In this document: piece after piece, positions 1,159 through 63,034 of the stretch
How positions within the stretch are numbered: position 1 is the stretch's first letter
How the letters are laid out: every line of letters begins with the position of its first letter
Virus record (IMG/VR): IMGVR_UViG_3300014039_000027
Location: 16,713-80,712 of that record
Direction: 5' to 3' (one strand)
Length of the DNA stretch: 64,000 nt
From: a virus
Lineage: Duplodnaviria > Caudoviricetes
The notes under the pieces: generated by a model
Databases searched by the model: none
Told to the model about the DNA's origin: nothing
What the model saw: the letters and a program-made list of their open reading frames with translations, nothing else
Program-made: the position numbers and the translations under genes

Positions 1159-1160
1159 CG

Positions 1161-3547: not shown

Positions 3548-3567
3548 CTGCGCCGTCCTCCGTTCTC

Positions 3568-4260: not shown

Positions 4261-4289
4261 GCCCTCACCCCGCTTTCCGTTTTCGTCAT

Positions 4290-4305: not shown

Positions 4306-4311
4306 TAGTCA

Positions 4312-4370
4312 TTTCCGTTGCGTTTCGAATATTTTTGCAACTTTTACTTCCGTTGCGTTTTGAATATCAC
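4312..4370. repeat. Two direct copies of TTCCGTTGCGTTT(C/T)GAATAT; third copy at 63119-63141
   Basis: Copies at 4312-4332 and 4348-4370; the second is identical over 23 nt to 63119-63141. Confidence 0.85.
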
Positions 4371-4924
4371 TTGCCGGTTTTCTGCGCCTGCTCCGCCAGC
4401 TCCGTCAGCTCCTTCATGCTCTCCGGCGTCATGGCGGCAGCGGCGCTCATGGCCATCCGCGCCACCACATCGTTCATCACCGCCAGATTGGCGTTGATCT
4501 CCGTGTTCAGCATCTTCTCCAGGTCCCGATAGTCCGCCAGCAGGTCATACGCCTTGTCCCGCAGCGCGTCGCTCTGCTTCTTCATCCGGTCGATCTGATT
4601 GACCAGCTGCACCCCGCCCACCAGGTCGTAGTCGTCGGCGCTCATCAGCCATTTGTCCTCCTCGCAGCCGTCGAAGTCCAGCCGCAGGTACGCCCGCGAT
4701 AGTATGCCCATCAGGTAACGGCGCTTCCGTTGCCCGTTCTCCCTATACATGGGCGGCACGTCGCCCCGGAATTTCTCCCCGGTGTTCACCACCACCCGGT
4801 CGATGCACCTCTCCGCGCAGTGGCTCACAATGGCCGCCTTCTCCATTAGCGGCACATAGGCGTTGGCCTTGGCGAATACCTCTTTCATGGTGATGGGCTT
4901 GCGCTCCTTGATGCTGTTTTCCAT
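4367..4924 (-). CDS. Hypothetical phage structural-module protein
   Basis: 185-aa ORF with AGGAGAG RBS. Confidence 0.65.
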   Translation of the reverse strand: MENSIKERKPITMKEVFAKANAYVPLMEKAAIVSHCAERCIDRVVVNTGEKFRGDVPPMYRENGQRKRRYLMGILSRAYLRLDFDGCEEDKWLMSADDYDLVGGVQLVNQIDRMKKQSDALRDKAYDLLADYRDLEKMLNTEINANLAVMNDVVARMAMSAAAAMTPESMKELTELAEQAQKTGK

Positions 4925-4969
4925 CTCTCCTGCTCCTTTCAGATTCCTAATGGAAATTCCCTCGCGTGT

Positions 4970-5149
4970 TTACTTTCTGTCCTTACACCGCAGTGAGCAG
5001 TTCCGCCACTGCGCCGCGTTTTCGTACCGTCCGCTGTCCGGGCAGTGGTACTGGTAGCAGCAGAAGTCGTGTGTCCCCGTCTGCTTCCCGCACCGTATGA
5101 TGATCTCCCCCACCTTCCGGTAGGCGTGCTCGCATATCGGCTTTGCCAT
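4970..5149 (-). CDS. Small Cys-rich hypothetical protein
   Basis: MAKPICEHAY..., 59 aa, GGAGGG RBS, 7 Cys. Confidence 0.6.
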   Translation of the reverse strand: MAKPICEHAYRKVGEIIIRCGKQTGTHDFCCYQYHCPDSGRYENAAQWRNCSLRCKDRK

Positions 5150-5154
5150 CGTCC

Positions 5155-6474
5155 TTACCACCCCTCCAGTGTGATGTCTGTGCTTACGCTCTTTCCCTTG
5201 CACCGGGCCGTCACCGTCAGGGGCTTCACACTGCCGCCCCAGCAGTACACGGCAGCGGTGTTCCCGTCTGCCTCTGCGGTGTAGCTGTCCTCCGCCGCCC
5301 CGGTGAAGGTCCATTCTATTGCGTCGCCGGTCTCCGCGCCGTTCTCGGTGTATATGGCCGTCAGCGTGGTCTTACCGTAGGCTTCCAGCCTCTCCACCGG
5401 GTCCGTCTGCCAGTGTACGCCGCTTACGCTCTCCGCCACCGTCACCGCATAGGTGCCATAGTGTTCCTCGTTCTGTACCAGCACCGCCGTTATGGTGCAG
5501 TCTCCCTCGCCCACCGCCGTCACGCTGCCCGTGGGGTCCACCCGGCATACGCTCTCATCGCTGCTGTACCACAGGTAGCGGGTGGGGTGCTCCGCGTCGC
5601 CGTCCGCCGCCTCTCCGTTCCGCAGGGACGCGGCGGTGAATTTTGCTTTTTCGCCCACGCTCATGGCCGCCCTGCCGCCCACGTTCACCTCCCAGGTGAA
5701 GGGGTAGGCGTTGGCCACCCGGCGCGTCAGGTCATCTTTCTCCTTGTCCGGCTCCGTCATCCGCGCCGTGAACCGCAGCAGCCGGCAGCTCTCGTCGTCC
5801 CCGGTGAACTCCTGCGCCACGTCGCTGTACCCGGTGATCTGATACGCCATCCGCCCCAGTATCAACCGGCTGTTCACGTCCAGGTCCTCCGTTTCACAGT
5901 TGCGCTGTATGATAATGTTGAAGTACCCCTGCATAATGAGCATGGTCTCCTGGAAGTCGTTGGCGCTGGCGTTCAGCTTCACGTTCTCCACCACCATCGG
6001 CTCCTTCAGCACGTTGCCGTACCAGTCCAGGTGGTTCCATGTGGCGTTGCACCGCCTTACGATGCCGCCGCCCACGGCGGAGGATATGTTGGCCGGGTTC
6101 GTCACCAGCCAGGTGGAGCCCATTGTCTCCATCTTTGCCCCTTCGGGCACATATTCGATGCGCTTGTCTACAAACAGGAACTCCTTGTAGTTGTCTATGG
6201 GCCGGTCTATGGCGTTGCCCTTCTTCCGCGCGTCGGCAAAGCGTATCAGCTGCTCGCTCCACTCGTAGAAGTTGTTGGGGTCGCTGTCCAGCCCCTGCAC
6301 CCGGCAGGCGGTGTAGTCGCTGGCGTACTTGCCGTATGCCTGCACGAACCGCGCCGTGGGGTCGCCGAAGTAGGGGTTCCGCCTGTCGTTGTACTGTGCG
6401 GGTCGGTTGGTGGGCGACTGGGGTCTCTCCGCCATCGCGGCGATATTGCTCAGATTTTTCCGTATGTCCGCCAT
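5155..6474 (-). CDS. Probable head-closure/connector protein with Ig-like (Big_2) domain
   Basis: 439 aa; WYSSDESVCRVDPTGSVTAVGEGDCTITA is a Big_2 motif. Confidence 0.65.
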   Translation of the reverse strand: MADIRKNLSNIAAMAERPQSPTNRPAQYNDRRNPYFGDPTARFVQAYGKYASDYTACRVQGLDSDPNNFYEWSEQLIRFADARKKGNAIDRPIDNYKEFLFVDKRIEYVPEGAKMETMGSTWLVTNPANISSAVGGGIVRRCNATWNHLDWYGNVLKEPMVVENVKLNASANDFQETMLIMQGYFNIIIQRNCETEDLDVNSRLILGRMAYQITGYSDVAQEFTGDDESCRLLRFTARMTEPDKEKDDLTRRVANAYPFTWEVNVGGRAAMSVGEKAKFTAASLRNGEAADGDAEHPTRYLWYSSDESVCRVDPTGSVTAVGEGDCTITAVLVQNEEHYGTYAVTVAESVSGVHWQTDPVERLEAYGKTTLTAIYTENGAETGDAIEWTFTGAAEDSYTAEADGNTAAVYCWGGSVKPLTVTARCKGKSVSTDITLEGW

Positions 6475-6494
6475 CGCCCTTCACCTCCCCTGTC

Positions 6495-7217
6495 TCACAG
6501 GAACTGGTATCGTCCATACCCGCCGCGCCCTCTCTGCACCGTGTTCAGGAACGTACAGTCCTGTTCGTACTTGTGCAGCTCGTCTGTCAGCCTTGCCCGG
6601 TTCTTCTCGTGCTTCGCCGCGCCCTCTCTCATGTAGGTGCCCTCGTTCACCGTGTCAAAGCTCGCGTCCTTTATCTTCATTTGGTCGTTCAGCCAGTTGC
6701 GGAAGAATCGCTCGTCCCACACGTTCGCCACGCACAGTCCCAATATCCGCTTCTGCTCCAGCGTCAGCTCGTGACCAAATTCACCGTCTGTGTAAAAGTC
6801 CAGCGTGTAGTTTATCCCCGCCATGTCCTGCATGGGGAACGTCACCACGCCCGTTTCGGCGTTGTAGCTCGCCCCGGTGTACGGCACCGCCGTCATGCCG
6901 CCCGTCACATCCTGCTCCACAATGGCGCAGGAGAATAGCTCGTAGCCCACCATCCCGGTGTCCACTTCCGTTTCGCCCATCAGGCTGCTTTCGTCACTGG
7001 TCCAGTAGAAGTCGCCGTACTGCGGCTCCACCAGTCCCTCCTTCAGGTACGCCCGCATCTGCACCGGCAGGGAGAATAGGGGGATGGCATTGGCCACATA
7101 CAGGCTCATCCGCCGCAGAAACGCCGCCGGGTCGTTGGCAGCCTCCTCCTGCAGCCGTACATCGTCTATGTCCACCATCGCGTGGTTCGTCACGATCTCG
7201 CTCCACTTCGTCCCCAT
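6495..7217 (-). CDS. Probable head-tail adaptor protein
   Basis: 240-aa ORF with RBS, directly upstream of the head-closure-like gene. Confidence 0.5.
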   Translation of the reverse strand: MGTKWSEIVTNHAMVDIDDVRLQEEAANDPAAFLRRMSLYVANAIPLFSLPVQMRAYLKEGLVEPQYGDFYWTSDESSLMGETEVDTGMVGYELFSCAIVEQDVTGGMTAVPYTGASYNAETGVVTFPMQDMAGINYTLDFYTDGEFGHELTLEQKRILGLCVANVWDERFFRNWLNDQMKIKDASFDTVNEGTYMREGAAKHEKNRARLTDELHKYEQDCTFLNTVQRGRGGYGRYQFL

Positions 7218-7229
7218 GTTCTCCCCTCC

Positions 7230-7757
7230 TTATGCCGGAATATAAATGGTTATCATCTCTCCCGCCGTGCCGTCTGTCAGCGCCACGCCGTCCGCGCCGG
7301 TCGAGTCTCCGCCCAGCCCCTCCACCAGCGGCGCGTTGCTGGGGTAGGTGTTTGCTCCGGGGTACAGGGTCGTGCTGGGCATCAGCCCGGTCTTTTCCGC
7401 CTGTGGGTACAGCGTTGCGGAGGGGTACAGTGTCTCTGAAGGGAATAGCCCCTTCGTTATCCGTACAAAGTCCCCCGCCTGTACCGCGGAGCCGGGGGCG
7501 ACGCGGTAGGCCGCCTCCCAGTCTCCGTTGCCGTACAGGTACAGGGCATAGCCCTCTCCGCTTGCCAGCGGAAGGCGTATCTGCCCCATATCGGGGTAGG
7601 TGGAGTTGTTTATCTTCACTCCCGCCTTCCACTTTTCCAGCGCTCCGGGCGCACCGTTGATCTGCATGAACCGTGCCGTGCCTCCTGCGGCCAGCGGCAC
7701 CTGCACGACGGAGATGCCCGTATAGGTCACGCCGTTGATCTTTACATCTCTCGCCAT
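7230..7757 (-). CDS. Virion fibre/decoration-type protein with LYP repeats
   Basis: LFPSETLYPSATLYP...TLYPGANTYP repeats; 175 aa. Confidence 0.55.
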   Translation of the reverse strand: MARDVKINGVTYTGISVVQVPLAAGGTARFMQINGAPGALEKWKAGVKINNSTYPDMGQIRLPLASGEGYALYLYGNGDWEAAYRVAPGSAVQAGDFVRITKGLFPSETLYPSATLYPQAEKTGLMPSTTLYPGANTYPSNAPLVEGLGGDSTGADGVALTDGTAGEMITIYIPA

Positions 7758-7775
7758 GCTTTCCGTTCCTCTCCG

Positions 7776-7961
7776 TCAGGCTATCGTCAGTACGCTGCCC
7801 GCCGCGGTGATCTGCGGCGTGGTCAGCGTCCCCACGATGGGTGCCCCACTCTTGTCGTGGGCGGTGGCGCCTTTCGCCAGCGTGTTGGCCGTCACGCTGT
7901 CCCCTGACAGGTCCAGCTTTACCGCGCCGTCCACCACGACCTTGTTCACGTTTTTTGCCAT
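7776..7961 (-). CDS. Small fibre-type protein, paralogue of the N-terminus of the next gene
   Basis: NKVVVDGAVKLDLSGDSV..KGATAHDKSGAPIVGT. Confidence 0.65.
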   Translation of the reverse strand: MAKNVNKVVVDGAVKLDLSGDSVTANTLAKGATAHDKSGAPIVGTLTTPQITAAGSVLTIA

Positions 7962-7989
7962 CGCCCTTTTACCTCGCTCTCTCCGCCTC

Positions 7990-8586
7990 TCAGGCGCCGA
8001 TGGTCAGCGTCACGCCGCCGGCCTCGTTGTCGGTCTCGCTGACGGGAATGGCGTTCACCGTCACGCTGGACAGGCAGTTATAGTCCTCGTCGGGCAGGAT
8101 CTCCTGGCTGGCGAAGGTGGGCGTCACGGTCTTGGCCTGCGCCTTCATGTCCTCGCTGCCGGACATGGTGCCCTCCACGCCCAGGATGGTCACACCCTCG
8201 CGGATGTTGGTCGCGATCAGCTTGGCCTGCTCCGCCTCGGCGATCTGCACGGTGCCGCTGCCGTCATGGAAGCCCAGGGGCACGGTATACACCTGCGCCT
8301 TGGTGGTGATGCTGCCGGCCACAGCGCCGTTGTTGGGCATGGTACCGGTGACCTCCACGCCCTTCACGAACGCGGTCTTGCCCAGCAGGATCTCCGCTGC
8401 GGACGCGGTAGCGCCGGAGGTGTCCGCATCATAGGTGCAGGTACCCACGATGGGTGCGCCGGTCTTGTCATGGGCGGTGATGCCCTTGAGCAGCTGGGCA
8501 GGCGCCACGCTGTCGCCGGTCAGGTCGATCTTTACCTGACCGCCCAGAATTACTTTGTTGATGTACTGATTAGCCATACTCCACAT
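7990..8586 (-). CDS. Phage fibre/structural protein
   Basis: NKVILGGQVKIDLTGDSV..KGITAHDKTGAPIVGT; ILLGKTAFVKG and NIREGVTILGV motifs typical of fibre proteins. Confidence 0.65.
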   Translation of the reverse strand: MWSMANQYINKVILGGQVKIDLTGDSVAPAQLLKGITAHDKTGAPIVGTCTYDADTSGATASAAEILLGKTAFVKGVEVTGTMPNNGAVAGSITTKAQVYTVPLGFHDGSGTVQIAEAEQAKLIATNIREGVTILGVEGTMSGSEDMKAQAKTVTPTFASQEILPDEDYNCLSSVTVNAIPVSETDNEAGGVTLTIGA

Positions 8587-8869
8587 CTCCTATCGTTAAA
8601 GTTTTTCCGCCGGCGGCATTGCTGACTTCGTACTGGGGAATCTTCTTCACCGTCACGTCGTCGTTCATGCGTTTGGCTTTTGTATGCAGCACAACAGGCT
8701 CGTCCACCTGTGGTGTTACCTCGTATTCGCCCTCGTAGGCGGGGATGATTTCTCCCCCGGTCTGTATCACTACATCCCGTATCTCTATCTCCACCACGGG
8801 CGTGCCCACCGGGGCGGTATTGGCGTTGGCGTTCTTTTTCTGTTCCGCCGCGAACTGCTGCAGCGCCAT
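8570..8869 (-). CDS. Hypothetical structural protein
   Basis: YEGEYEVTPQ...DDVTVKKIPQYEVSNAAGGKT motif; 99 aa. Confidence 0.6.
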   Translation of the reverse strand: MALQQFAAEQKKNANANTAPVGTPVVEIEIRDVVIQTGGEIIPAYEGEYEVTPQVDEPVVLHTKAKRMNDDVTVKKIPQYEVSNAAGGKTLTIGDVEYG

Positions 8870-9178
8870 TTACATCACCCCTTTTGACCGACTTGCGGAG
8901 ACATAGATGGTCTTGCCCTTCGCCCCCACCACGCTCTCGTCGTTGAATTTTATCCGCGCCTGCACCGGCGGCGTCCTCCCCGCCTTAAAGGCGAAGGTCT
9001 GCTCCTGCGTCAGCGGGAATAGCCACTGTCCGTTTTCCTCGTCGTAGCGCACCACGCCGGGGTACGTCCTCGTCAGGTTCCCTATGGTGATCTCCAGCCG
9101 CAGCACCATCTCCGGCGTTATCAGCAATTCGCCTTGCCGCAGCACGATGGGCAGCGAATAGGCGTCACCCTGCATCAT
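8870..9178 (-). CDS. BppU-N-like small structural protein
   Basis: MQGDAYSLPIVL...FPLTQEQT...QARIKF pattern; 102 aa. Confidence 0.5.
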   Translation of the reverse strand: MMQGDAYSLPIVLRQGELLITPEMVLRLEITIGNLTRTYPGVVRYDEENGQWLFPLTQEQTFAFKAGRTPPVQARIKFNDESVVGAKGKTIYVSASRSKGVM

Positions 9179-9220
9179 GGCCGTTCCCTCCTTCCGCTTG
9201 TATGGCCAAGGACTCCGCTT

Positions 9221-10027
9221 TTACTTGGCGTCCTTTTCGTTCATGTCCTCAATGATGGCAATAAAGTCGCCCTTCTCGTGTCCCTTGCGTTTGCTCAGCG
9301 CGTTCAGCTTCACCGTGCGCTCCCGCGTCACGTACCGGCTGCCCTGGCGATAGGCATCGGCGTACATCTGCGCCGCCATCACCTTGTGTCCCTCGCACAG
9401 CGCCGGGTAGATGTGCAGCAGCTCATCCCCCAGCTCCACCAGCTTGGCAAACGCCCGCTTGTCCAGCACCTCGCCGGGCTTGTAGTCCACGCCCAGCGCC
9501 TCGCGCTCCTCGTCCGTCAGGCCGCTTACCACCAGCAGCCACCGCTGCGCCATGAACCGGCGGTTCATCTCCGTCAGTATGCGGCTCAGGTCCGGCTTCG
9601 GCACATAAAAGCTCCCTGTCTTTCCCACGATGTTGCCGTACATTCCGCCCTCGCCGAACTGCACCACGTTGTCGTCCGCCACCGGCGCCATCCACAGGAA
9701 ATGTACCTGCTCCGCGCTGGTGCTCACCTGCACGATCTGCGGCGCCGCCTGCTGAGGAATGTTTTTCAGCGCCTCCGCCACGGCGGCGGCAGCGGCCTCT
9801 TTCATCATCTGCTGCACCTGCTCCGCGGTGTACATCACCGGCGCGGCGGGCGCTTCCGGGGCATCAGCCGCCGCCTGCGCGTTCTCCTGCGCCGCAGTGT
9901 TCACGTCCCCGCCCTCGTCGGGAGCGTCCGCGCTCACCTGGGGCGCCAGCATCACCTGGTCCTCCTCGCTCTCCTCCGCTGCGATCTGCGCGGCCAGCTT
10001 GCTTCCGCTTTTCTTCTGCTTACCCAT
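9221..10027 (-). CDS. Hypothetical protein with Ala/Glu-rich low-complexity N-terminus
   Basis: Start MGKQKKSG with AAAGGAG RBS; 268 aa. Confidence 0.65.
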   Translation of the reverse strand: MGKQKKSGSKLAAQIAAEESEEDQVMLAPQVSADAPDEGGDVNTAAQENAQAAADAPEAPAAPVMYTAEQVQQMMKEAAAAAVAEALKNIPQQAAPQIVQVSTSAEQVHFLWMAPVADDNVVQFGEGGMYGNIVGKTGSFYVPKPDLSRILTEMNRRFMAQRWLLVVSGLTDEEREALGVDYKPGEVLDKRAFAKLVELGDELLHIYPALCEGHKVMAAQMYADAYRQGSRYVTRERTVKLNALSKRKGHEKGDFIAIIEDMNEKDAK

Positions 10028-10059
10028 GCTTTCTGCTCCTTTCATATTCCTTTCATGGT

Positions 10060-10395
10060 CTGTTTCTGTCTGCCGCAATGCGTCAAGGCTCCCGCCGCTG
10101 CCCCGTTTACACGTCGGCGCATTGCATACCCTCCGGTCTCCCGGCACTTCCTTTTGAAAAAGTCCCCGCTGGGCCACATCGCTGAGAGGTGCGCGGGGTC
10201 CTATACACAAGCCCGCAGTATTGCGCCTTCCGGCCCGCGGGAATTGTTTTTGCAAGCCGCCTTTTTACACCGGACGGACGGCGTGTCTGCTGGCAACCGT
10301 GTTACTTTTAGGCGCTCAATACACGGATAAAGCGCCAATGCTGACACACTTTCAGGGCGGCGCTATGCCATTGCCCAACGGCAGTGTCCTCCGCT
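10060..10395 (-). ncRNA. Candidate structured non-coding RNA downstream of tRNA-Trp
   Basis: About 330 nt with no credible ORF and several stems (TGCCGTT/AATGGCA, GCGCC/GGCGC, CCGTGT/ACACGG, CCCCGC/GCGGGG). Confidence 0.4.
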
Positions 10396-10397
10396 TT

Positions 10398-10472
10398 TGG
10401 CACGGACGCGAGGACTCGAACCCCGAACTGCGGTTTTGGAGACCGCCGTTTTCCCGCTTAAACTAAATCCGC
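10398..10472 (-). tRNA. tRNA-Trp(CCA)
   Basis: GCGGT-CT CCA AA-ACCGC anticodon arm, GGTTCGAGTCC T arm, G73, encoded CCA; U7.C66 mismatch. Confidence 0.85.
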
Positions 10473-10477
10473 ATATC

Positions 10478-10515
10478 CGGGGAGGGGCTTTCGCCCCTTC
10501 CCCTGTGTGGTTTTT
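10478..10515 (-). terminator. Hairpin after the capsid gene
   Basis: GGGGAGGGG-CTTTCG-CCCCTTCCCC. Confidence 0.5.
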
Positions 10516-10517
10516 CC

Positions 10518-11735
10518 TTACACGGTGAAGTGCGCGATCTTGGACGCAAACGTGGCCACACTGTCCAGGGCGATGGTCAGGTTCAGGCCGATCTCGAAAT
10601 CCCCGGTGCGGGTGGGATCCATCTCAATAGAGATGGGTGTGCCGCTGGTGTAGCCGATGGTCAGCGGCTTTCTGCCGTTGCCCGCCAGCATCCAGATGTC
10701 GTTCTCGCTGAGCATGGTCTCCACGGTGGTGTTCTGGGTGCCGGGGATGATGACATCCCGCATGGGCATCAGGCGCACCGCCATGAACTCGCCCAGGTAG
10801 CCGGCCTTGGTGTAGTCCGCGCCCAGCAGGGTGGCGATAGCGGCGTCCATGTTCACGTTGGTGGAGCCGGTCACGGTGTTGGGCAGGACCTTGCTCAGGG
10901 CCACGGTGCTGCCGGTGGCAAACACGTCGGAGATGGTGGTGTTGTTCAGCGCGGCGATCTTGTTGGCGCCCTTCACCCAGTTCTGATTGTTGAAGGTGAA
11001 GTTCAGGTTGGTGGGGATCAGGCTGGTGTCCTCCGTAGCGGCGGTCATGGCCTCATTCCACATACCCATGGTCTTGGCGTACATACCTGCCACCATGTTG
11101 GCGAAGAAAACGCCGAAGTCCATGTTGGTGCCCACCAGCTGCATCCACTTGGCGGTGATCCAGCAGCTCTTGGGGGTGGGGTTCAGGGTATAGTCGCGGG
11201 AATAGAAGCGGTTGCGCGGCACGCTGCGGCTGGCGCCCCAGCTGGAGTCCTGGAAAACGGGGATGTCGTTGCTGCCGATGCTCACGGCGTAGGTCTGGCC
11301 CAGCTCGATCTCCACGGTCTCGGCGAAGTCGCTCAGCGCCTCGGAGTACACGGCGGGCAGAATGGGGATGATGACCTCCTGCCAGATGCCCTGCAGCACG
11401 GCGTAGAACCGGGCGTTGCCGTAATACTCGCCGCCGTTGCGCTTGAACTCCTCCCAGCTCTCGGGGGCCTTCTTGCCGGTGCTGGCGCAGGCCAGCTTGG
11501 CGGCGTACAGCAGGCTTTCCCGCTGGAACTGCTCGTTCAGCTGCTTGTAGCCCCGGTCGTTCATGGTGCGCTGCACGGGGGTGTTCTGCCCCTTGGCGCT
11601 CAGAACGGCCATCTTGCCCTTCAGGGCGTGTTCATAAAACAGCACGCGGCCCTTGGCCACGATGTCCTCGCGCTGGTCGTTTCCGTTGATGGCGAAAACC
11701 TCGTTGGAAACGCTGTTCAGGTTCAGCTTTGCCAT
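10518..11735 (-). CDS. Major capsid protein
   Basis: 405 aa; follows scaffold/protease-like and decoration genes in canonical head order. Confidence 0.7.
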   Translation of the reverse strand: MAKLNLNSVSNEVFAINGNDQREDIVAKGRVLFYEHALKGKMAVLSAKGQNTPVQRTMNDRGYKQLNEQFQRESLLYAAKLACASTGKKAPESWEEFKRNGGEYYGNARFYAVLQGIWQEVIIPILPAVYSEALSDFAETVEIELGQTYAVSIGSNDIPVFQDSSWGASRSVPRNRFYSRDYTLNPTPKSCWITAKWMQLVGTNMDFGVFFANMVAGMYAKTMGMWNEAMTAATEDTSLIPTNLNFTFNNQNWVKGANKIAALNNTTISDVFATGSTVALSKVLPNTVTGSTNVNMDAAIATLLGADYTKAGYLGEFMAVRLMPMRDVIIPGTQNTTVETMLSENDIWMLAGNGRKPLTIGYTSGTPISIEMDPTRTGDFEIGLNLTIALDSVATFASKIAHFTV

Positions 11736-11758
11736 TTCTTACTCACTCTCCTCTCTCA

Positions 11759-12352
11759 TTAGCCCGCCACGGTGCTGACCTTGCAGGCCCACACGTCGTA
11801 GTACACAAAGCTCTGCACGGTGCCCTCGGTGAAGTTGCCGGTGCCCTTCAGTTTGAAGTAGATGGCGCCGGTAGCGGTGGGGGCGGCAGCGGCGGGTACC
11901 AGCAGGCCGTTGGCGATGGTGAAGATGGTGTTCTCACCAATGGCGCCGTTCACGTTGCCCTCGCCGAAGCGATAGGCGTGCTTGCCGTCAAACACGATCT
12001 CGGTGAAGGTGCCGTCCCGTCCGGCGGGGATGCCCAGCCCCAGGGTGGCGGTGCCCACGGCGTAGTTGTTGCCGTTGCGTCCGCCCAGCATGGGCCACTC
12101 GTAGGTGTTGCAGGCGTACACGCCGGTGTCGGCGTTGGCGTCTGCGCCGGCGGCGCTCATGTAAAAGGCGTTCTCGTTCTTGATGCCCTTGAAGCCCGCG
12201 CAGGGCAGCTGCTCGCCGCGCACCACCAGCAGGCCCGCGGAGCAGTCCGCGTCCGCCTCGGACACCTGATAGCGTCCCGTGATGTTGCACAGTTCGTTGA
12301 ACTCGTTGTTGGTGATCCGCGGCTCAAACGCGGTTTTCTCGATGTATGCCAT
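11759..12352 (-). CDS. Probable capsid decoration/cement protein
   Basis: 197 aa, beta-rich, between scaffold and capsid genes. Confidence 0.55.
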   Translation of the reverse strand: MAYIEKTAFEPRITNNEFNELCNITGRYQVSEADADCSAGLLVVRGEQLPCAGFKGIKNENAFYMSAAGADANADTGVYACNTYEWPMLGGRNGNNYAVGTATLGLGIPAGRDGTFTEIVFDGKHAYRFGEGNVNGAIGENTIFTIANGLLVPAAAAPTATGAIYFKLKGTGNFTEGTVQSFVYYDVWACKVSTVAG

Positions 12353-12375
12353 GTTCGTTCACTCTCCTTTTCGTT

Positions 12376-13767
12376 TTACTTGCCGGCGTCGATGCCCCAC
12401 TTGTTCAGCAGAGCGTCCACACCCTCGCTGCCCTCGCCGCTGTTGCCGGCGATATGCTCCCAGGCGTAGGTGGTCTTGCGCTTCTGTGCGCTGCGCTTGT
12501 CGCTCTCCATCACGGCCTCGCCGCACACGGCCAGCACCGCCTCGCGCACCAGCTTCTCGCCCAGCCACGCGCCGTCCTTGTCGCAGCTGTTGGCGTACAG
12601 ACCGGACTCGATGTTCTCGTTCACGGCCTTGATGGCCTCCTCCGCCACCTTCTCCTCGCGGTTGGCGTTGAACGCCTCCAGCGTGGCCTTGGCGGTATTC
12701 TTGCAGGCGCTCAGCCGGCGCTTGCTCTCCGCCTCCTGCATGGCGCGGATCTGCTCGTTGGCAGCCTCCAGCTTGGCGTTCAGGCTCTTCACCTCGCCGT
12801 CGGTCTCCTTCACGGAGGCCACGGTGTAGTCCACCACGTCCGCCACATCGGCGTTCAGCTCCACCTCGCCCACGCTCAGCACGATGTGCGCCGCGCAGGG
12901 GGCGATCTTGCTGGCGATCACCTCGCCGTTGTCGTCCGCGTTGAAGGTGTAGCCGAAAAGATTGCCGGAAGCGTCCAGCAGCGCCACGTTCAGCCCGTCC
13001 TCGCTCATGGAGAGCACCTTGTGGTGGGGGAACTTGGTCTGCATCTGCTCCATCGCTCTCTTGTTCATGTTGCTTTTCACTCCTTTTTTCGTGTTTTTGT
13101 CGTTTCCGTTGCCCTCGCTGCCCTCTGCGGCTGTGTGCAGCGATGCGGCCCGCAGTTTCAATTCCTTAAATTCCTCCTGCATGGCCGCCAGTCTTGCGAT
13201 GCTCGCTCCCGGTATCGCCGGGTTCACCCTGTCTCCCAGAATGGTCACGCCTATGCCCGCCCATTTGGTAAACACGTCCACATCGCCCTCTTTGTGGCTC
13301 TCCGACACCATTGTCTCGGCGGAAACGTCCATCGTGCCCTGTTTCACGATCTTCCGCGTCAGCTCCGGGGCGTAAAAGGCAAACAGTCTCCCCTTCGCTC
13401 TGAGCCATGTATGACCGCCCCTCTCCACAAGGGTAAAGTCCTTTTCGTCGTCGGACAGCGTTCCCACGATGCGCTCCGCCGTCCCGTCCATGAAGGATTG
13501 GTACTCCTCCCCGGTCTGGGGGTCCCGGCGCTTGCTCATGTTGTGTCCGTCCCCCACCTGCTGCCCCACATAGGCGATCAGAATGGGCTGCCCGATGAAG
13601 GTCTTGTAGTACTTGTCCAAATTCTTGTACGACCAGTTGTTCCGATTTGGATCTTCTCTCATTACCCAGAGTTCGACACCAAATTCGTATTCACTGAGTC
13701 TTTGCAAAACCTTTAGAGACCCCGTTGCACGAGTCTTTTGGGGAATTTGCTTTGTCTTGATTCCCAT
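12376..13767 (-). CDS. Probable prohead protease/scaffold fusion
   Basis: N-terminal globular domain (DPNRNNWSY, GHNMS, VSAET, GVTILG) plus C-terminal coiled coil; GGAGG RBS at MGIKTK. Confidence 0.6.
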   Translation of the reverse strand: MGIKTKQIPQKTRATGSLKVLQRLSEYEFGVELWVMREDPNRNNWSYKNLDKYYKTFIGQPILIAYVGQQVGDGHNMSKRRDPQTGEEYQSFMDGTAERIVGTLSDDEKDFTLVERGGHTWLRAKGRLFAFYAPELTRKIVKQGTMDVSAETMVSESHKEGDVDVFTKWAGIGVTILGDRVNPAIPGASIARLAAMQEEFKELKLRAASLHTAAEGSEGNGNDKNTKKGVKSNMNKRAMEQMQTKFPHHKVLSMSEDGLNVALLDASGNLFGYTFNADDNGEVIASKIAPCAAHIVLSVGEVELNADVADVVDYTVASVKETDGEVKSLNAKLEAANEQIRAMQEAESKRRLSACKNTAKATLEAFNANREEKVAEEAIKAVNENIESGLYANSCDKDGAWLGEKLVREAVLAVCGEAVMESDKRSAQKRKTTYAWEHIAGNSGEGSEGVDALLNKWGIDAGK

Positions 13768-13768
13768 G

Positions 13769-14467
13769 TCACTCCCTCCTATGAATTTGCTTGTTTGCCG
13801 CCTGCTCCTGCCACGTTGCCCAGCGGACATTCCCCGGTTCGTAGTCCCCGTCAACATTGATTCTGTCAATGGTCATCCCCGGCTCTCCGTAATGCGGCAA
13901 TCTGCAAACGTAGTCGTAAAACGCTTCAAAACTGTCGCGCCATTCTTCGCAGACTCGGATGCCCCTGCCGCCATACCACTTGTATGCAGCGGCGTTTGGA
14001 TTTCCACACCGGTGCTTCATTCCGCACCATACGCCGTATATCTTTTCGGCAGACATTCCGTGCGTTGTAACTTTCTCTGCCGTCAATCGCGTTTCTACGC
14101 TCTTGCATCCGCAGCTCTGAGATGCTCCAAAATTCAACGCGCCGGTATGGACTACCGAAGTCCGCCCGCAATCGCAAATACAGTTCCATGCGGAGTTCCC
14201 TGCGTAAGAAAGAACCGTCAGTCGTCCAAACCGCCTACCGATCAGATTTTCTTTAGGCCCCTGCTCAAGTTTTGCGTTACGCTGCAATCTTTTTGCATCG
14301 CAACCGCAAGAGCGCGTCCCTCCGCTATTCAAGCTATCCGTTCGTACCGCTTTTTCTTTGCCGCACTCACACTTACACAGCCAGTATTTTTTACCCGCAG
14401 GGCGAATCAGTGTCCAAAGTCCATAGCGCTCTCCCGGCGCATTTTTTCTCGGTCTGCCCATATTCAA
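13769..14467 (-). CDS. Free-standing HNH-type homing endonuclease (paralogue 2)
   Basis: WLCKCECG..SCGC repeats; YGGRGIRVCEEW; TIDRINVDGDYEPGNVRW. Confidence 0.8.
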   Translation of the reverse strand: MNMGRPRKNAPGERYGLWTLIRPAGKKYWLCKCECGKEKAVRTDSLNSGGTRSCGCDAKRLQRNAKLEQGPKENLIGRRFGRLTVLSYAGNSAWNCICDCGRTSVVHTGALNFGASQSCGCKSVETRLTAEKVTTHGMSAEKIYGVWCGMKHRCGNPNAAAYKWYGGRGIRVCEEWRDSFEAFYDYVCRLPHYGEPGMTIDRINVDGDYEPGNVRWATWQEQAANKQIHRRE

Positions 14468-14559
14468 TTACCGCCTTTCGTAATCAGCCTTCTTTTCGAA
14501 ACAAGGGGAAGGCGGCAAGGCTAACCGCTTTTCGGGAGCTACCCTATCCCCATGTTTTT

Positions 14560-15093
14560 TCACTCATTGCCGCCTTCAAACAGTTCTCTGCACCAGCTGT
14601 CAAAGGTGGCGCGGCTCATCTGCCCGTTGTCCCACATGGTCCAGGCGTCCAGCAGCTTGCGCCGATCGTCGGTGTTGGCGATCTGCAGCTCCTCCGCCTT
14701 CAGCGCAAGCGCGTTGAACTCCCCGTCCGCCGCTGCACGGATAAAGCCGCCCAGCGCCTCGTTGATGCCGTCCACAATGGCCACGCACACCTCGAATACC
14801 CGGTCCAGGTCGTTGTCCAGCTCCTCGTCCAGCTCCGGCGTTCCGGGGTACATCAGCCGCAGGTGGTAGTCGTGGGGTATCTCCGCGAACTCGTCTATCC
14901 TCTCCGGCTGCCTGTGCTCCAGTTTGTGTATGGCGTCCGACAAAAACGGCATCCCCATGTCGCACAGCACTCGGTCCTTGATGTCTGCGAACCACTTTTC
15001 CCCGTTGCCGTAGGCTTCCATCACCCGGCGCATGGGTTCTTTTATGGGCGCGAACCGGGGGTTATCCCAGCTGGCGTATTCCTGTGCTCTCAT
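14560..15093 (-). CDS. Helical hypothetical protein, possibly ferritin-like
   Basis: 177 aa, all-helical pattern, HKLEHRQPERIDEFAE; GGAGTGAGG RBS. Confidence 0.5.
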   Translation of the reverse strand: MRAQEYASWDNPRFAPIKEPMRRVMEAYGNGEKWFADIKDRVLCDMGMPFLSDAIHKLEHRQPERIDEFAEIPHDYHLRLMYPGTPELDEELDNDLDRVFEVCVAIVDGINEALGGFIRAAADGEFNALALKAEELQIANTDDRRKLLDAWTMWDNGQMSRATFDSWCRELFEGGNE

Positions 15094-15237
15094 GTCCTCA
15101 CTCCCTCTCTCCGCAAAATGAAAATGGAGCCGCAGCCGGTGTTCTCCACTGGCGCAGCCCCATTTGGCCCTTCTCGCAGTCCCTTTACCGCGATTATTCG
15201 TTTTTCGGTCCCCACTGTCGCAGGGGCTCTCGCCGCC

Positions 15238-15414
15238 CTATCGCTCTGTCGGCAGCGGCATGGCCGCGCCTTTCTTTTTCTTCACCGTGTGCACGGTGTG
15301 TGCCTTTATGGCCAGCCCGTCCGCCGTCCGGCGTATCTCCACGTCGTTGCCGCGGGCCAGTTCCCGGTTGATCTCGTGCAGGTCGTCCGCCGTCAGTATC
15401 GCCGTCATGCTCAT
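15238..15414 (-). CDS. Small hypothetical protein
   Basis: MSMTAILTADDLHEINRELARGNDVEIRRT; GAGAGG RBS. Confidence 0.55.
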   Translation of the reverse strand: MSMTAILTADDLHEINRELARGNDVEIRRTADGLAIKAHTVHTVKKKKGAAMPLPTER

Positions 15415-15418
15415 CCTC

Positions 15419-17221
15419 TCAGTCTCCCGCGTCCTCTGACGCTTCCTGTCCCTCGGTCCCCGGCGCTCCCTCCGATGCCGGTCTCCCTCCGGGGTCTGTC
15501 GCTCTTTTGGCCTCCGGCGTCTGACCACCGTTTCCATTTCCGCCGTTCTTTGTCTCCGTGAATGTGGAACTAAGCGGTTTTCTCAGGTCCATGATCCCGG
15601 ATTCCGTCACCGCGCGGCTTATGGACATATCATCCAGCAGGGACATATTGTTCATAGCCAAATATTTCAGCGTTGCCGGCAATATGCCCAGCGTCATATC
15701 TTTTCTCAGGCTTTCTCTCAAATCATTGTCCGTGGCAATGTCCCCGAAACACTCAAATCGCCAGGAAAATTTCAGGTTCAGCCCGTCCATGATGCCCTGC
15801 ATCATGCGCTCGTAGCAGCGGTATATCTGCTCAGCGAATTTGCTCTCTATCTGCAAGCTGATGTTCGCCACACCCGCCCGCGGCTCGTCGCTGGTGGGTA
15901 TCAGGGCAGAAAGGCCCGCCTTCGCCATGGTGTAACCGTACCCGGCGGAGCTTATCTTTGTGGCGCTGGGCGCCTCGGCCAGCTGGTGCAGCGACATATT
16001 TTTCAGCGGCGCTGCGTACCAGCCTATGCCGCTGGTGTTGTTCTCCGCCAGCTCGTCGTAGAACCGCGTGCGGAAAAGCTCCCACCCCGCGTTGCTCAGC
16101 TTGTAGGCGTCGGACAGATTGCGGTTGCTGTCGTCCGCGTACTCTATCTCGCCCGTCAGCAGCGAGATCAGCGGGTTCTGTACCAGCTCCAGCTGTATCT
16201 GCTCGTACTGCGCGATCTGTATAAACGACAGGAAAAGCCCCGTCAGCGGCGATACCACCGCCGTCTGCGCGTCGTCTATCTCGAAGGGGTATACAGCGTC
16301 CACCGGCAGTGTCACCCAGTAGCACCACTTCCCGTTCTGATAGTACACGTCCGGGTCTCCCGGCAGCAGTCCGCCGTCACGCTCCGCCGCCGTTTTCAGC
16401 GCCGCAAACTTGTTCATGTTGATGGTGTTCTTCGCCGCGTATACATACCGGGTGCCCGCGCCCTTGGGCGGCCTTGCCGCCACCTGGGTGAATATCCCCC
16501 AGTACGGCTTAAACAGGTCTCCGAACTGCGCCGGTTCGCACCCCGGCTTCATGAAGTACATCATGTTGAAGGCCACCGTGTACTTCGACACACTGTTGAA
16601 CCCCACGATCTTTACCCAGTCGCTGGGCAGCTGCTGCATAAAGGCGTAGTTCACCTTGTTGTGGGGCTTGTCCACGCTTACGCGGGGGTAGTAGAATACC
16701 TTGCCCTCCTGCACCGCCTGTCCCGCCAGCTTATGGGCGGTGGCCTTTACGTCCATTTTCCGCCGCAGCTTCTCCAGCAGCTTCCACTCCCGCCAGAACT
16801 CGTCGTTCTTCGCCGTGTCCTTGTCGGTGAACTCCGGCGCGATGTAGCTGTGGTATGTCAGCAGATCCTGGTACATCTTCCGGGTGTGGAAAAGCGGGTA
16901 CGCGGTAAATTCCAGCCCGTGCTCCACCTGCCGCAGCCCCTGCTCGTTGCCCAGGGGGGCGGTCAGCATCTCCGCCACCTTGTTTTTCGTAAAGTCCTCC
17001 GGCAGCGAGGATATGGCCTGTACGCGGCGGTTCTGAATGTAGGGGTTCGCCCGCGCCGCCTGGCTCATGCTCACCCTGCTGAAGGCGCTGGCCAGCGCCC
17101 CTGCCGGCATATTGCCGTACTGCTCCGCCAGCGCGTTGAACCTCTTGAATATGTCGGGGTAGGTGCCGCAGGCCACGCTCTGCAATTCACTTGTCAGGTT
17201 TCTCCGCTTCTCCTGCTCCAT
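15419..17221 (-). CDS. Portal protein
   Basis: 600 aa, immediately downstream of the terminase and upstream of the head genes. Confidence 0.7.
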   Translation of the reverse strand: MEQEKRRNLTSELQSVACGTYPDIFKRFNALAEQYGNMPAGALASAFSRVSMSQAARANPYIQNRRVQAISSLPEDFTKNKVAEMLTAPLGNEQGLRQVEHGLEFTAYPLFHTRKMYQDLLTYHSYIAPEFTDKDTAKNDEFWREWKLLEKLRRKMDVKATAHKLAGQAVQEGKVFYYPRVSVDKPHNKVNYAFMQQLPSDWVKIVGFNSVSKYTVAFNMMYFMKPGCEPAQFGDLFKPYWGIFTQVAARPPKGAGTRYVYAAKNTINMNKFAALKTAAERDGGLLPGDPDVYYQNGKWCYWVTLPVDAVYPFEIDDAQTAVVSPLTGLFLSFIQIAQYEQIQLELVQNPLISLLTGEIEYADDSNRNLSDAYKLSNAGWELFRTRFYDELAENNTSGIGWYAAPLKNMSLHQLAEAPSATKISSAGYGYTMAKAGLSALIPTSDEPRAGVANISLQIESKFAEQIYRCYERMMQGIMDGLNLKFSWRFECFGDIATDNDLRESLRKDMTLGILPATLKYLAMNNMSLLDDMSISRAVTESGIMDLRKPLSSTFTETKNGGNGNGGQTPEAKRATDPGGRPASEGAPGTEGQEASEDAGD

Positions 17222-61249: not shown

Positions 61250-61507
61250 AAAATTTTTTCAAAAATCTGCAAAAGTGTCCTTGACACGGGGCGCATACTT
61301 AAAATTGCCGAAGGGGACACCCCTCCCCAACGGCTTCGGTGTACCCCCCGAATTATATATGCCCGTCCGTAAGAAGGGCAGCGCCGGTCTTACATCCATT
61401 CTTCCGGCGTCCCCAGCGCAATTCTGGCCGGAACGCGGCCACGGGGGCGCGAGCCCCTTCCGCCGCACGTCAGCTCGCCCACCAGGACGTAAACAAGGTG
61501 GGGATCC

Positions 61508-61583
61508 GGTGTCGTAGCTCAGCTGGCAGAGCAGCCGCCTTGTAAGCGGCAGGTCGTGGGTCCGATCCCCACCGATACCTCCA
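61508..61583 (+). tRNA. tRNA-Thr(UGU), atypical T loop
   Basis: GCCGC-CT TGT AA-GCGGC; acceptor GGTGTCG/CGATACC, U73, CCA; T loop TCCGATC. Confidence 0.85.
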
Positions 61584-61767
61584 AGCCGCCCGTTGGGGTT
61601 CTCGTGCGAGTATCATAACATGGCAGATAGGCCCGCCGCCCAGTCCCGCCCACTATCGGGCACCAGGAGAAGCGTCGGGGCTGCCGGCTAAATGGCGTCA
61701 CCCAGCGCCATAAGAGAACGAGGCTTCCGCCGCGCCGCTAAAGCGGGATATGGCGCGGCACCCATCC

Positions 61768-61840
61768 GCAGACGTAGCTCAGCCGGTAGAGCACCGCGCC
61801 AGGAGGTATGTCGTTGGTTCGAGTCCAACCGTCTGCACCA
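61768..61840 (+). tRNA. tRNA-like RNA with collapsed anticodon arm (pseudo-tRNA)
   Basis: Perfect acceptor GCAGACG/CGTCTGC, D and T arms and CCA, but no canonical 5-bp/7-nt anticodon arm. Confidence 0.7.
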
Positions 61841-61847
61841 ATAGGCG

Positions 61848-62150
61848 TGACCTCTTGCCTCGCAGCCGCACGGAGCGTAAGCCTGCGAAAGTGGTCTTTC
61901 CTGTGCGCTGTACGAAAGCGGCAGGACGAAGTAATTTATTTATTGGCTGGCACCGGCCTTGTAAAGATGAACGGATGCGACCGACGTACCGGCGCAGGGC
62001 TGAAAAGTTCCGTGGTTGGTTCGGGCGCCGGCGTGTGCGGCGAAAATCCGAGGCGAAAATAGCAGATATGGACGCGGCGTGGTAGCGGCTGCCTTCGGGC
62101 AAGGCCGCTGTGTAGGTCAGTAGCTACCCGCGCCGGTGCCCCGCCAACTG
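61848..62150 (+). ncRNA. Candidate multi-branched structured RNA
   Basis: Long-range GGCACCGGC/GCCGGTGCC helix, nested stems, GNRA- and UUCG-type loops. Confidence 0.55.
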
Positions 62151-62166
62151 TGTCCCAACAAAACTC

Positions 62167-62240
62167 GCAGCGTTTGTGTAATGGTAGCACATCGGTCCTC
62201 CAAACCGATAGTGGCGGTTCGAATCCGCTACGCTGCTCCA
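62167..62240 (+). tRNA. tRNA-Gly(UCC) with C33
   Basis: TCGGT-CC TCC AA-ACCGA; acceptor GCAGCGT/ACGCTGC, U73, CCA. Confidence 0.85.
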
Positions 62241-62310
62241 GCCCGGTCTATCCGGGCGCCCACCCCCACCGGGGAGGCGGGCATCCCCCAGCCCCCTCCC
62301 CACTCTCTAC

Positions 62311-62455
62311 GCAGGATCGCCGTCGGGGCGCTTGCACGGCACACACAGAGATCTCCTTTCTGCTGCTGTTTGGACACATCAACACCTCCATTGTTCATGT
62401 CATCTTTTCCGTGTGCCGGCAAGCCATGCGGGTTCGACTCCCGCCTCCTGCTCCA
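62311..62455 (+). ncRNA. 145-nt tRNA-like RNA with extended anticodon helix and 66-nt loop
   Basis: Acceptor GCAGGA/TCCTGC-U-CCA, mini D arm CGCC/GGCG, T arm GCGGG-TTCGACT-CCCGC, helix CTTGC-A-CGGCACAC/GTGTGCCG-GCAAG. Confidence 0.7.
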
Positions 62456-62629
62456 CCGGGCGCGACAGGCGCCCGCGGTCCAGATAGGACCTCCTTTATA
62501 GATGCCGCGGCTGTAAGAAGCGGCACCGGGTTTTGTTCATTTTCCCCGGCTCCTGTTGGAATACAGGCAGGCCAAGCGATTTCTCCTTCCGGGCGGCGCG
62601 GTCTGGGCAGCCGCGCCGTCCAACCCCCT

Positions 62630-62705
62630 GGGGGATTAGCTCAATCGGCAGAGCAGGCGGCTCATAACCGCCCGGTTCCGGGTTCAAGTCCCCGATCCCC
62701 CACCA
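62630..62705 (+). tRNA. tRNA(CAU), probably Ile2 (lysidine type); elongator Met not excluded
   Basis: GGCGG-CT CAT AA-CCGCC; acceptor GGGGGAT/ATCCCCC, A73, CCA. Confidence 0.85.
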
Positions 62706-62758
62706 GCCGCAAGGCGATAAAACATTTCAGCTATTTTAACAGAAAGGAGGCACATCCC

Positions 62759-63034
62759 ATGACCAAGAGCGAGTTCATCACCACTCTGGCAGCAGCGACC
62801 GACATGAAGAAGTCCGACGTCGAGCGCGTGATCGCCGCCGCTACCAACACCCTCACCGGCGTCATGCGTTCCGGTGACAGCGTGAATATCTCCGGCTTCG
62901 GCATCTTCACCAGCAAGGTCCGCGACGCCCACCCCGGCAAGAACCCCGCCACCGGCGAGACCATCACCATCCCCGCCAAGCGCGTGGCCATCTTCAAGCC
63001 CGCCAAGCAGCTCAAGGACGCCGTCAACAGCTGA
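62759..63034 (+). CDS. hup: HU-family DNA-binding protein
   Basis: MTKSEFI...GDSVNISGFGIF...GKNPATGETITIPAKRVAIFKPAKQLKDAVN. Confidence 0.95.
   Translation: MTKSEFITTLAAATDMKKSDVERVIAAATNTLTGVMRSGDSVNISGFGIFTSKVRDAHPGKNPATGETITIPAKRVAIFKPAKQLKDAVNS

Follow-up and report, generated by a model that had tools for sequence, protein, structure and literature searches.

Related Noncoding RNA Loci

The transfer RNA (tRNA) cluster of phage T4 gives rise to two stable non-tRNA RNAs, species 1 and 2 (rnaC and rnaD), which are ~120–140 nt long, have no known function, derive from tRNA precursors, and are matured by RNase P and 3′ nucleases, enzymes of tRNA processing. GOLLD and ROOL are large structured RNAs of phages and prophages that often lie near tRNAs and are possibly co-transcribed with them (PMC5737381; bioRxiv 10.1101/2024.12.08.627333), and GOLLD is sometimes covalently linked to a tRNA or contains one (bioRxiv 10.1101/2024.12.08.627333). 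In murine gammaherpesvirus 68 (MHV68), the TMERs consist of a tRNA-like element followed by precursor microRNA hairpins and are processed by tRNase Z (PMC4838037). Here, we describe an array of tRNAs, tRNA-like units, and structured noncoding RNAs at positions 61250–62758 (+ strand) of a 64,000-nt window (the whole stretch of DNA that was analyzed) from a Caudoviricetes genome, IMG/VR virus record IMGVR_UViG_3300014039_000027. The record spans 80.7 kb and was rated complete, and the window corresponds to its bases 16713–80712.

The array consists of tRNA-Thr(UGU) (T1), T2, tRNA-Gly(UCC) (T3), T4L, and a tRNA with the anticodon CAU (T5), with spacers between them. The features of decoding competence (a 5-bp anticodon stem, a 7-nt loop, and U33) were present in T1, T3, and T5 and absent from T2 and T4L. 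We consider it slightly better than an even bet (a rough probability of 0.55 for the reading as a whole) that this locus forms a polycistronic RNA operon in a temperate phage of gut Oscillospiraceae and that its tRNA-shaped units are processing handles setting the ends of structured RNAs. The tRNA islands of phages are generally seen as cargo for codon supply, while this one is made up mostly of conserved structured RNA.

A preliminary description of the array had listed five CCA-ended tRNA or tRNA-like units, and all five were confirmed by ARAGORN, Rfam, the fold of T4L, and the sequence, in which an encoded CCA was read for 5/5 units. The spacers measured ~220–258 nt (the S0 leader), 184 nt (S1), 326 nt (S2), ~70 nt (S3a), and 174 nt (S3b). 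In the range of 180–390 nt first given for them, the supposed 390-nt spacer resolves into S3a, T4L, and S3b. The array was found in more than 25 independent contigs and is thus not an assembly artefact. On the comparative evidence presented below, we regard it as a genuine and conserved locus of multiple RNAs and consider an explanation by junk DNA or small proteins largely excluded.

The S2 RNA Family

The longest spacer and the unit directly 5′ of it are as follows.

61841–62166 (+): S2, two-domain structured RNA of ~310 nt (domain 1, ~61869–62014; domain 2, ~62015–62149)
61768–61840 (+): T2, tRNA-like unit with intact acceptor, D, and T arms and A73-CCA (Rfam tRNA model, 50.6 bits over 61768–61837)

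The structure of S2 was evaluated by covariation using an alignment of 21 sequences (A4), for which RNAalifold yielded a consensus of 76 pairs in two domains. Both sides were altered with pairing retained in 21/76 pairs, and 97.9% of the alignment cells were paired when scored on the structure that RNAalifold derived from the alignment itself. As controls, slid alignments gave 5–7 double-changed pairs, and 0/500 shuffles matched the observed value. The covariation check called for in the preliminary description thus returned compensatory pairs in S2 (21) and in T4L and S3b (9, described below). The folding energy of S2 was unremarkable (z = −1.0), and support for its structure comes from covariation and not from folding energy. 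For the widest set of S2 sequences (A6), the RNAalifold structure was fragmentary because the 5′ ends align poorly. S2 closes through its own outer helices.

The first 200 nt of S2 were nearly invariant over 20 distinct sister sequences, and divergent copies with 73–86% identity were present in unrelated viral contigs of ~40 kb. Sequence conservation was strong in domain 1, and domain 2 occurred in several interchangeable versions. A 26-nt core pattern was found in more than 114 viral contigs and three contigs of metagenome-assembled genomes (MAGs), two of them assigned to Oscillospiraceae/Oscillibacter and the third labelled Staphylococcaceae. A search with the 146-nt domain 1 matched 3/301 sampled genomes of the presumed host family, and the S2 family is therefore mainly phage-borne.

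The Rfam scan (4227 models) gave no match for S2 in the window (up to E 10) or in 22 related loci, and six divergent S2 loci had no hit with the limit set at E = 5. At both gathering and permissive E-values, no family was assigned to any spacer of the window or the 22 related loci, which answers the Rfam check proposed at the outset. No open frame of at least 25 codons remained intact across the homologues of S2 or of T4L and S3b, in keeping with the earlier statement that the spacers hold no credible open reading frames (ORFs). For a possible protein partner, ORFs within ±3.5 kb of 139 S2 loci were clustered; no RNA-binding or RNA-modifying protein was found, and the clusters comprised only an upstream helix-turn-helix (HTH) gene, terminase and portal genes, or HU, nifS, and integrase genes. 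Terminators lay 3′ of S2 in only 5/105 copies. Judged from its covariation and distribution, S2 is best described as a member of a widespread, uncatalogued two-domain RNA family of ~300 nt.

The Junction between CCA Ends and S2

The sequences upstream of S2 were collected by S2 alone, without reference to tRNAs. In 72/83 distinct upstream contexts, N-CCA directly abutted the S2 5′ motif (AUAGGCGUG or GAUGUAU), and the remaining 11 contexts mostly showed CCA or ACA shifted by 1–2 bases. A strict geometry (acceptor stem 7/7 and T stem at least 4/5) was satisfied by 36/59 contexts compared with 8/241 control positions. The units at this place were diverse. Some carried the T2 scaffold with varied inner domains; in tRNA-Trp(CCA)-like genes the D arms were odd, and in Thr-like units the loops were enlarged; still others were mimics that had little besides an acceptor stem, one hairpin, and CCA. 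The conserved element 5′ of S2 is, on this comparison, evidently the tRNA-shaped end and not the decoding part. Wherever S2 and the neighbouring tRNA-like unit could both be placed, the two shared one strand, and the closing helices of S2 were independent of the type of upstream unit.

The possibility that S2 is a mini-insertion tailored to tRNA 3′ ends, resembling a cis-mobilizable element (CIME) or attC, was rejected, as S2 contained neither a spare tRNA 3′ copy nor a matched closing helix. No repeat of the T2 3′ end was found in or behind S2, where the sole resemblance (70% over 27 nt) was at chance level. Repeats shared by the spacers and tRNAs were likewise limited to 13–30 nt at chance level, shared tRNA arms excepted.

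Two further features of these surroundings were recorded. A GC hairpin (GGCGGGGCUUCGGCUCCGCC) followed by GGAGGGAGCAAUAU recurred directly 5′ of differing tRNA-like units preceding S2 (L168, L175, L182, L237, and others); candidate roles for it are the end of a gene, a leader for RNase P, and a promoter element. Trp(CCA)-like units precede many S2 copies of other phages, and a separate tRNA-Trp(CCA) gene is located in the window at 10398–10472 (−), on the opposite strand and distant from the array.

T2, a tRNA-like Unit without an Anticodon Arm

What is left of the anticodon arm of T2 is an ACC/GGU pairing that closes a 9-nt loop (GCGCCAGGA), and in the Rfam tRNA alignment 12 nt replace 15 inner anticodon-arm model positions. 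ARAGORN did not call T2 as a tRNA. The scaffold pattern (GCAGAYGUASCUCAG ... CGUCUGCACC) was found in more than 117 viral contigs, and the collapsed core ACC-GCRCCRGGA-GGU-AUG was common to 46/73 distinct scaffold variants. The T stem of the scaffold occurred as GCUGG/CCAGC, GUUGG/CCAAC, or GCAGG/CCUGC and was fully paired in 67/73 variants. T2 appears to be under selection rather than decaying because the collapsed core is kept in 46/73 variants while the T stem covaries.

The scaffold was also found with further non-standard inner domains, among them 81–90-nt forms and anticodon loops lacking U33. What persisted across the variants was the acceptor stem, the D/T elbow, and RCCA, which are the parts recognized by bacterial RNase P. 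All substrate features of this enzyme that we considered are present in T2, namely a 7-bp acceptor stem, intact D and T arms, and A73-CCA.

Six scaffold variants (L136, L043, L131, L132, L044, and L104) have formally complete anticodon arms and no U33; their loops read CACAUAA (CAU) and CCAAUAA or CAAAUAA (AAU). The collapsed core of T2 itself reads AGGAGGUAUG, that is, a Shine–Dalgarno (SD) sequence, 1 nt, and AUG, and it opens an 84-codon frame into S2 (61808–62062, +). This frame was rejected as a gene, as it was not preserved in relatives and the spacing between the SD sequence and AUG is too short for initiation.

T4L and S3b, a Pair with Anti-Shine–Dalgarno-like Motifs

Between tRNA-Gly and T5, the array contains a second non-decoding unit and the spacer that follows it.

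~62311–62455 (+): T4L, tRNA-Gly-derived unit with a long arm, 145 nt (fold z = −3.6)
62456–62629 (+): S3b, string of six hairpins (median identity to the window 94.8%; ~71% in the L028 clade)

In the fold of T4L, the acceptor stem has 6–7 bp, the D arm is a mini hairpin, a 13-bp arm bears a 66-nt loop, the T arm is perfect, and the 3′ end is U73-CCA. It was missed by ARAGORN and by the Rfam tRNA model, which gave no hit at E up to 10. The pattern of its T arm and acceptor 3′ strand elsewhere marks ordinary tRNA-Gly genes (U73, G1-C72, and C2-G71), and T4L is therefore a remodelled tRNA-Gly. Among the RNase P substrate features, the 6–7 bp acceptor stem, the T arm, and U73-CCA are present, and the D arm is only a mini hairpin. 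The region 62241–62629 as a whole folded with z = −4.4. Nine pairs of T4L and S3b were changed on both sides across two clades, two of them in the T4L acceptor stem and the rest in four S3b hairpins.

The 66-nt loop of T4L is pyrimidine-rich and carries CUCCUUUCUG and CACCUCC, and S3b carries GGACCUCCUUU on the 3′ side of its second hairpin and UUUCUCCUUCC between the fifth and sixth. Together, these motifs spell what we take to be the 3′ tail of 16S rRNA (the anti-SD sequence). CTCCT occurred five times in T4L and S3b against an expectation of 0.42, in a post hoc test. In the L028 clade, CCUCC and UCCUUUCU were retained in a rearranged T4L loop. The loop motif CUCCUUUCUG (62354–62363) is perfectly complementary over 10 nt to the ribosome-binding region of the HU gene, CAGAAAGGAG (62740–62749), which lies 380 nt downstream on this strand. 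A complementarity of ~10 nt to the HU site was also seen in the L028 clade, where it is kept despite the rearranged loop.

T4L and S3b were confined to the phage lineage of the window and one divergent clade (L028, L282, and L327). Two scans of viral sequences for distant relatives yielded only the same lineage and ordinary tRNA-Gly genes, and a metagenome scan, whose pattern was too loose, added only L028-like copies. Two other identities of T4L were rejected. A 47-codon minus-strand frame was not preserved in relatives. Transfer-messenger RNA (tmRNA) was discarded given a negative ARAGORN tmRNA search, A3-U70 (G3-C70 in L028), U73, and no loop frame ending in a stop.

Conservation and Module Shuffling

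Approximately 25 sister phages and GenBank MT835520 carry the same array, as determined by an HU-based search and BLAST. The median identities to the window were as follows.

nifS: 77%
HU–nifS intergenic region (IG2): 82%
S4: 83%
ORF upstream of the array: 88.5%
S0: 91% (21 sister phages)
T4L: 92.6%
S2: 93%
HU: 94%
S3b: 94.8%

By this comparison, the spacers appear to be conserved above the local neutral level. Unconserved spacers had been named as an outcome that would speak against the preliminary description, and those of the array showed 91–95% identity, as against 77–83% for nifS and ordinary intergenic DNA. The spacers had also been called hairpin-rich, which applies to 62241–62629; S0 (−1.6), S2 (−1.0), and S1 (−0.4) gave z-scores no better than shuffles. 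The spacers not listed above are the following.

61287–61507 (+): S0, hairpin-rich leader before tRNA-Thr (fold z = −1.6), with a terminator-like hairpin at 61335–61352
61584–61767 (+): S1, movable 184-nt module of family s5 (fold z = −0.4)
62241–62309 (+): S3a, two GC hairpins, ~100 nt shorter than in sister phages

A modular map was constructed from the units and clustered spacers of 27 arrays. The order was tRNA-Thr; s3, S1, or s6; a T2 variant or tRNA-Arg; S1, s7, or S2; tRNA-Gly; a spacer; T4L; S3b; the CAU tRNA; and HU. Spacer families s3, s5, s6, s7, and S2 were swapped among the phages, with a tRNA or tRNA-like unit at every boundary. S1 copies of 96–97% identity were located at differing array positions in six sister loci, each directly following the CCA end of tRNA-Thr or tRNA-Arg. 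Unrelated 40-kb phages have similar arrays (T2, spacer, Trp-like unit, S2, and tRNA-Gln) between a small HTH gene and terminase/portal genes.

The stretch between tRNA-Gly and T4L varied in two ways. The ~100 nt absent from the window are present in all sisters (62241–62309 versus L004 3373–3544), and L008 and L027 have an extra aberrant tRNA-like unit there, to which ARAGORN gave a 2-nt "anticodon". At locus L088, which belongs to an unrelated phage, T2-S2 lies just 5′ of the small terminase gene, flanked by genes for Lar (restriction alleviation) and for a Tad2-like (anti-Thoeris) protein (9975–10367 and 12136–12585); from these gene contents, the surroundings of T2-S2 in L088 are read as an anti-defence neighbourhood.

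Decoding tRNAs and Genomic Context

The three decoding tRNAs were all called by ARAGORN and scored well above the gathering threshold (29 bits) of the Rfam tRNA model (RF00005).

61508–61583 (+): T1, tRNA-Thr(UGU) with encoded U73-CCA (63.9 bits)
62167–62240 (+): T3, tRNA-Gly(UCC) with U73-CCA (61.7 bits)
62630–62705 (+): T5, anticodon CAU with a G1-C72 pair, called as tRNA-Met (60.7 bits)

As G1-C72 is paired, T5 is predicted not to be an initiator tRNA and would be elongator Met or Ile2. The anticodon of tRNA-Thr was UGU in the window and CGU in all sister phages (61508–61583 versus L002 1776–1851 and others), and the anticodon stem was fully compensated between them (GCCGC/GCGGC against CUCAU/AUGAG). 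The window tRNA-Thr looks like an anticodon-arm swap within an otherwise identical tRNA.

A gene for a Rha-type regulator and two small ORFs lie 5′ of the array, and an HU gene followed by a gene for a class-V aminotransferase (cysteine-desulfurase-like, nifS) lies 3′ of it. The array units and the flanking genes are on one strand throughout.

61281–61305 (+): promoter-like TTGACA, 13 nt, TAAAAT; weak, at the start of the conserved block (conserved onward in MT835520)
62706–62758 (+): S4, short hairpin followed by the HU ribosome-binding site (CAGAAAGGAGG); median identity only 83%
62759–63034 (+): HU-family DNA-binding protein gene (Pfam Bac_DNA_binding, E = 1.1e-27)

The promoter scan made no call at 61281–61305, where the spacing of TTGACA and TAAAAT is non-canonical. 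Array core sequences were also found in Oscillospiraceae and Oscillibacter MAGs, and because of this recurrence the phage host is probably a member of Oscillospiraceae.

Elsewhere in the record, the part before the window (positions 1–16712) encodes a tyrosine integrase (906–1952, +) and a reverse transcriptase (4899–6200, −); a DUF6273 protein adjoins the latter, and the two may form a diversity-generating retroelement. An int-alpA RNA motif (Rfam RF02996, 50.5 bits) is located at 14488–14554 (−) of the window, and the int-alpA motif and DUF3800-VIII RNA were also observed near the S2 copies of L220 and L204.

Interpretation of the Array

In the reading that we favour, the three decoding tRNAs (Thr-UGU, Gly-UCC, and CAU) would be interleaved with structured noncoding RNAs in one co-transcribed precursor. 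T2 and T4L would have lost decoding and kept the parts read by RNase P (the acceptor stem, T/D elbow, and RCCA). RNase P would cut the 5′ end of each tRNA-shaped unit, and the RNA that follows the unit would be released or delimited by another cut, at the CCA end. In the case of T4L and S3b, a lineage-specific pair would display copies of the 16S rRNA 3′ tail and probably act on SD sites or on tail-binding factors. The conservation of the spacers, the covariation, the exact CCA–S2 junction, and the module shuffling are direct observations on the sequences compared. The idea of the preliminary description that the tRNAs act as punctuation gains strong genomic support from the tRNA or tRNA-like units at all module boundaries and from the 72/83 N-CCA starts, and we regard that interpretation as partly supported overall. 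Of its suggested small-RNA arsenal, only T4L and S3b resemble base-pairing small RNAs.

Several points weigh against this reading. Co-transcription, cleavage, RNA stability, and all downstream functions are what we infer from the DNA. The conservation among sister phages could come partly from recent module exchange and not from selection. The folding energies of S0 and S1 are ordinary (z of −1.6 and −0.4), and covariation support is confined to S2, T4L, and S3b. The enrichment of anti-SD motifs was tested only after the motif had been noticed. A canonical tRNA lay within ~45 nt 3′ of S2 in only 28/102 copies, and the 3′ end of S2 is therefore not generally set by a tRNA. As for the CCA end, precursors bearing CCA in Firmicutes are normally trimmed by exonucleases, and we know of no Firmicute endonuclease that cuts after an encoded CCA. 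An encoded CCA blocks RNase Z in Bacillus-type systems, and the handle may therefore stay attached to S2.

This last point leads to a rival that we hold to be rather unlikely, in which T2 and S2 form one covalent chimeric RNA of ~400 nt whose tRNA-like 5′ domain serves as a protective cap, a docking module for tRNA factors, or cargo. A fused RNA would account for the exact, conserved CCA–S2 junction no less well than a cleavage site would, the apparent lack of a Firmicutes endonuclease acting after CCA is in its favour, and GOLLD can carry covalently linked tRNAs (bioRxiv 10.1101/2024.12.08.627333). However, near-identical S2 copies follow very different units (T2, Trp-like, and acceptor-only), a pattern that speaks against co-adaptation of the two parts in one fold, S2 is closed by outer helices of its own, and the strictly kept CCA is more readily explained by an exposed or RNase P-read end. 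Beyond our favoured handle reading, the decoding-dead tRNA shapes might be a general device of gut Firmicutes phages for loading or maturing effector RNAs. Such a role would make S2 a new large functional RNA needing an adjacent free or RNase P-read CCA (for example, it could be a ribozyme cutting its own 5′ junction, or a captor of tRNAs, ribosomes, or tRNA-targeting defence nucleases), and T4L and S3b would be 16S-tail mimics redirecting initiation or decoying defences directed at the rRNA tail. We offer this extension as speculation and think it unlikely.

The spacers might instead be cis-acting leaders that influence antitermination, processing, stability, or translation of the downstream genes (HU and nifS here, terminase elsewhere). 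The position of T2-S2 between a small HTH gene and terminase/portal genes in unrelated 40-kb phages fits this proposal, as do the absence of a terminator between the array and the downstream genes and the 10-nt complementarity between the T4L loop (62354–62363) and the HU ribosome-binding site (62740–62749). It is nevertheless quite unlikely: the S2 sequence is kept while the genes downstream vary (HU and nifS; terminase or Tad2-like), known cis antiterminator RNAs are much smaller, and the adjacency to tRNA CCA ends is left unexplained. Module shuffling among sister phages and the occurrence of near-identical S2 behind unrelated tRNA or tRNA-like units in unrelated phages would also be expected if S2 and the other modules were selfish or recombination-driven cassettes at tRNA 3′ ends, spread by mobility and not by benefit to the phage. 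Like the leader proposal, this accounts for fewer of the observations than the handle reading, and we judge it very unlikely, as S2 has no spare tRNA 3′ copy, no terminal repeats, and no closing helix matched to its neighbour, its many compensatory changes imply selection on the RNA fold, it is co-oriented with the neighbouring tRNA-like unit wherever both were located, and no recombinase is consistently linked. The least probable explanation, which we consider largely refuted, is an ordinary phage tRNA cluster with decaying pseudogenes, non-functional spacers, or unrecognized small protein genes. In its favour, phages typically carry normal tRNAs for A-ending codons such as the three found here, and S0, S1, and S2 fold with unremarkable energies; set against this, the spacers are more conserved than nifS and other intergenic DNA, covariation is found in S2, T4L, and S3b, the collapsed T2 core is conserved in 46 variants, and no open frame is preserved in S2 or in T4L and S3b.

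If the handle reading holds, the CCA–S2 junction and the gutted tRNA scaffolds would provide a testable rule for the maturation of phage noncoding RNAs by host tRNA enzymes. An anticodon-arm-less tRNA-like unit followed by an ORF-free conserved stretch is a search handle for further RNAs, and the tRNA-scaffolded anti-SD loops suggest a new phage route to interfere with translation initiation.

Comparison with Known Systems

In the preliminary description, the array was proposed as a plausible undescribed system, which was an overstatement given the precedents of GOLLD and ROOL (PMC5737381; bioRxiv 10.1101/2024.12.08.627333) and of the T4 stable RNAs. The array adjoins tRNAs just as GOLLD and ROOL, structured noncoding RNAs of phages and prophages with unknown function, lie in or beside tRNA islands. 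It differs from them in size (~310 nt for S2 compared with ~580 nt for ROOL and ~800 nt for GOLLD), and the S2 array region had no match to their Rfam models (gathering threshold and E up to 10). To our knowledge, a base-exact joining to a tRNA-like CCA end, as found for S2, has not been described for GOLLD or ROOL, which are also characterized by the formation of homo-oligomeric cages. The T4 species rnaC and rnaD, compared here by description, are likewise non-tRNA RNAs among phage tRNA genes; T4 infects a host of another phylum and lacks a series of decoding-dead tRNA handles.

The MHV68 TMERs share with the array the use of a non-decoding viral tRNA-shaped element as a handle for the noncoding RNA directly downstream, a role that is a proposal for the array. 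As the TMERs belong to a eukaryotic virus and involve Pol III transcription, Dicer processing, and microRNA cargo, the likeness is one of principle and not of family. T4L resembles tmRNA in its acceptor and T arm, in the long helix replacing the anticodon arm, and in its 3′ end, whereas it has neither the G3-U70 of a tRNA-Ala-like acceptor nor a tag frame with an in-loop stop and is only 145 nt long. Y RNAs (YrlA), which also occur in phages, are modular noncoding RNAs built around a tRNA mimic; the acceptor ends of the array units, in contrast, would be RNA termini and not an internal module. No Ro60/TROVE gene was matched in the 80.7-kb record, with positive controls. For T2 (beyond tRNA), T4L, and S2, no Rfam family was found among the 4227 models, among which the inclusion of a YrlA model was unconfirmed.

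S2, T2, T4L, and S3b belong to none of the known families with which they were compared. What is new at this locus is the S2 family, the base-exact CCA fusion, the conserved anticodon-less scaffolds, and the tRNA-scaffolded anti-SD loops. The S2 family, which extends over more than 100 viral contigs, covaries strongly, and has no entry in Rfam, is a candidate for work on structure and function beside GOLLD and ROOL.

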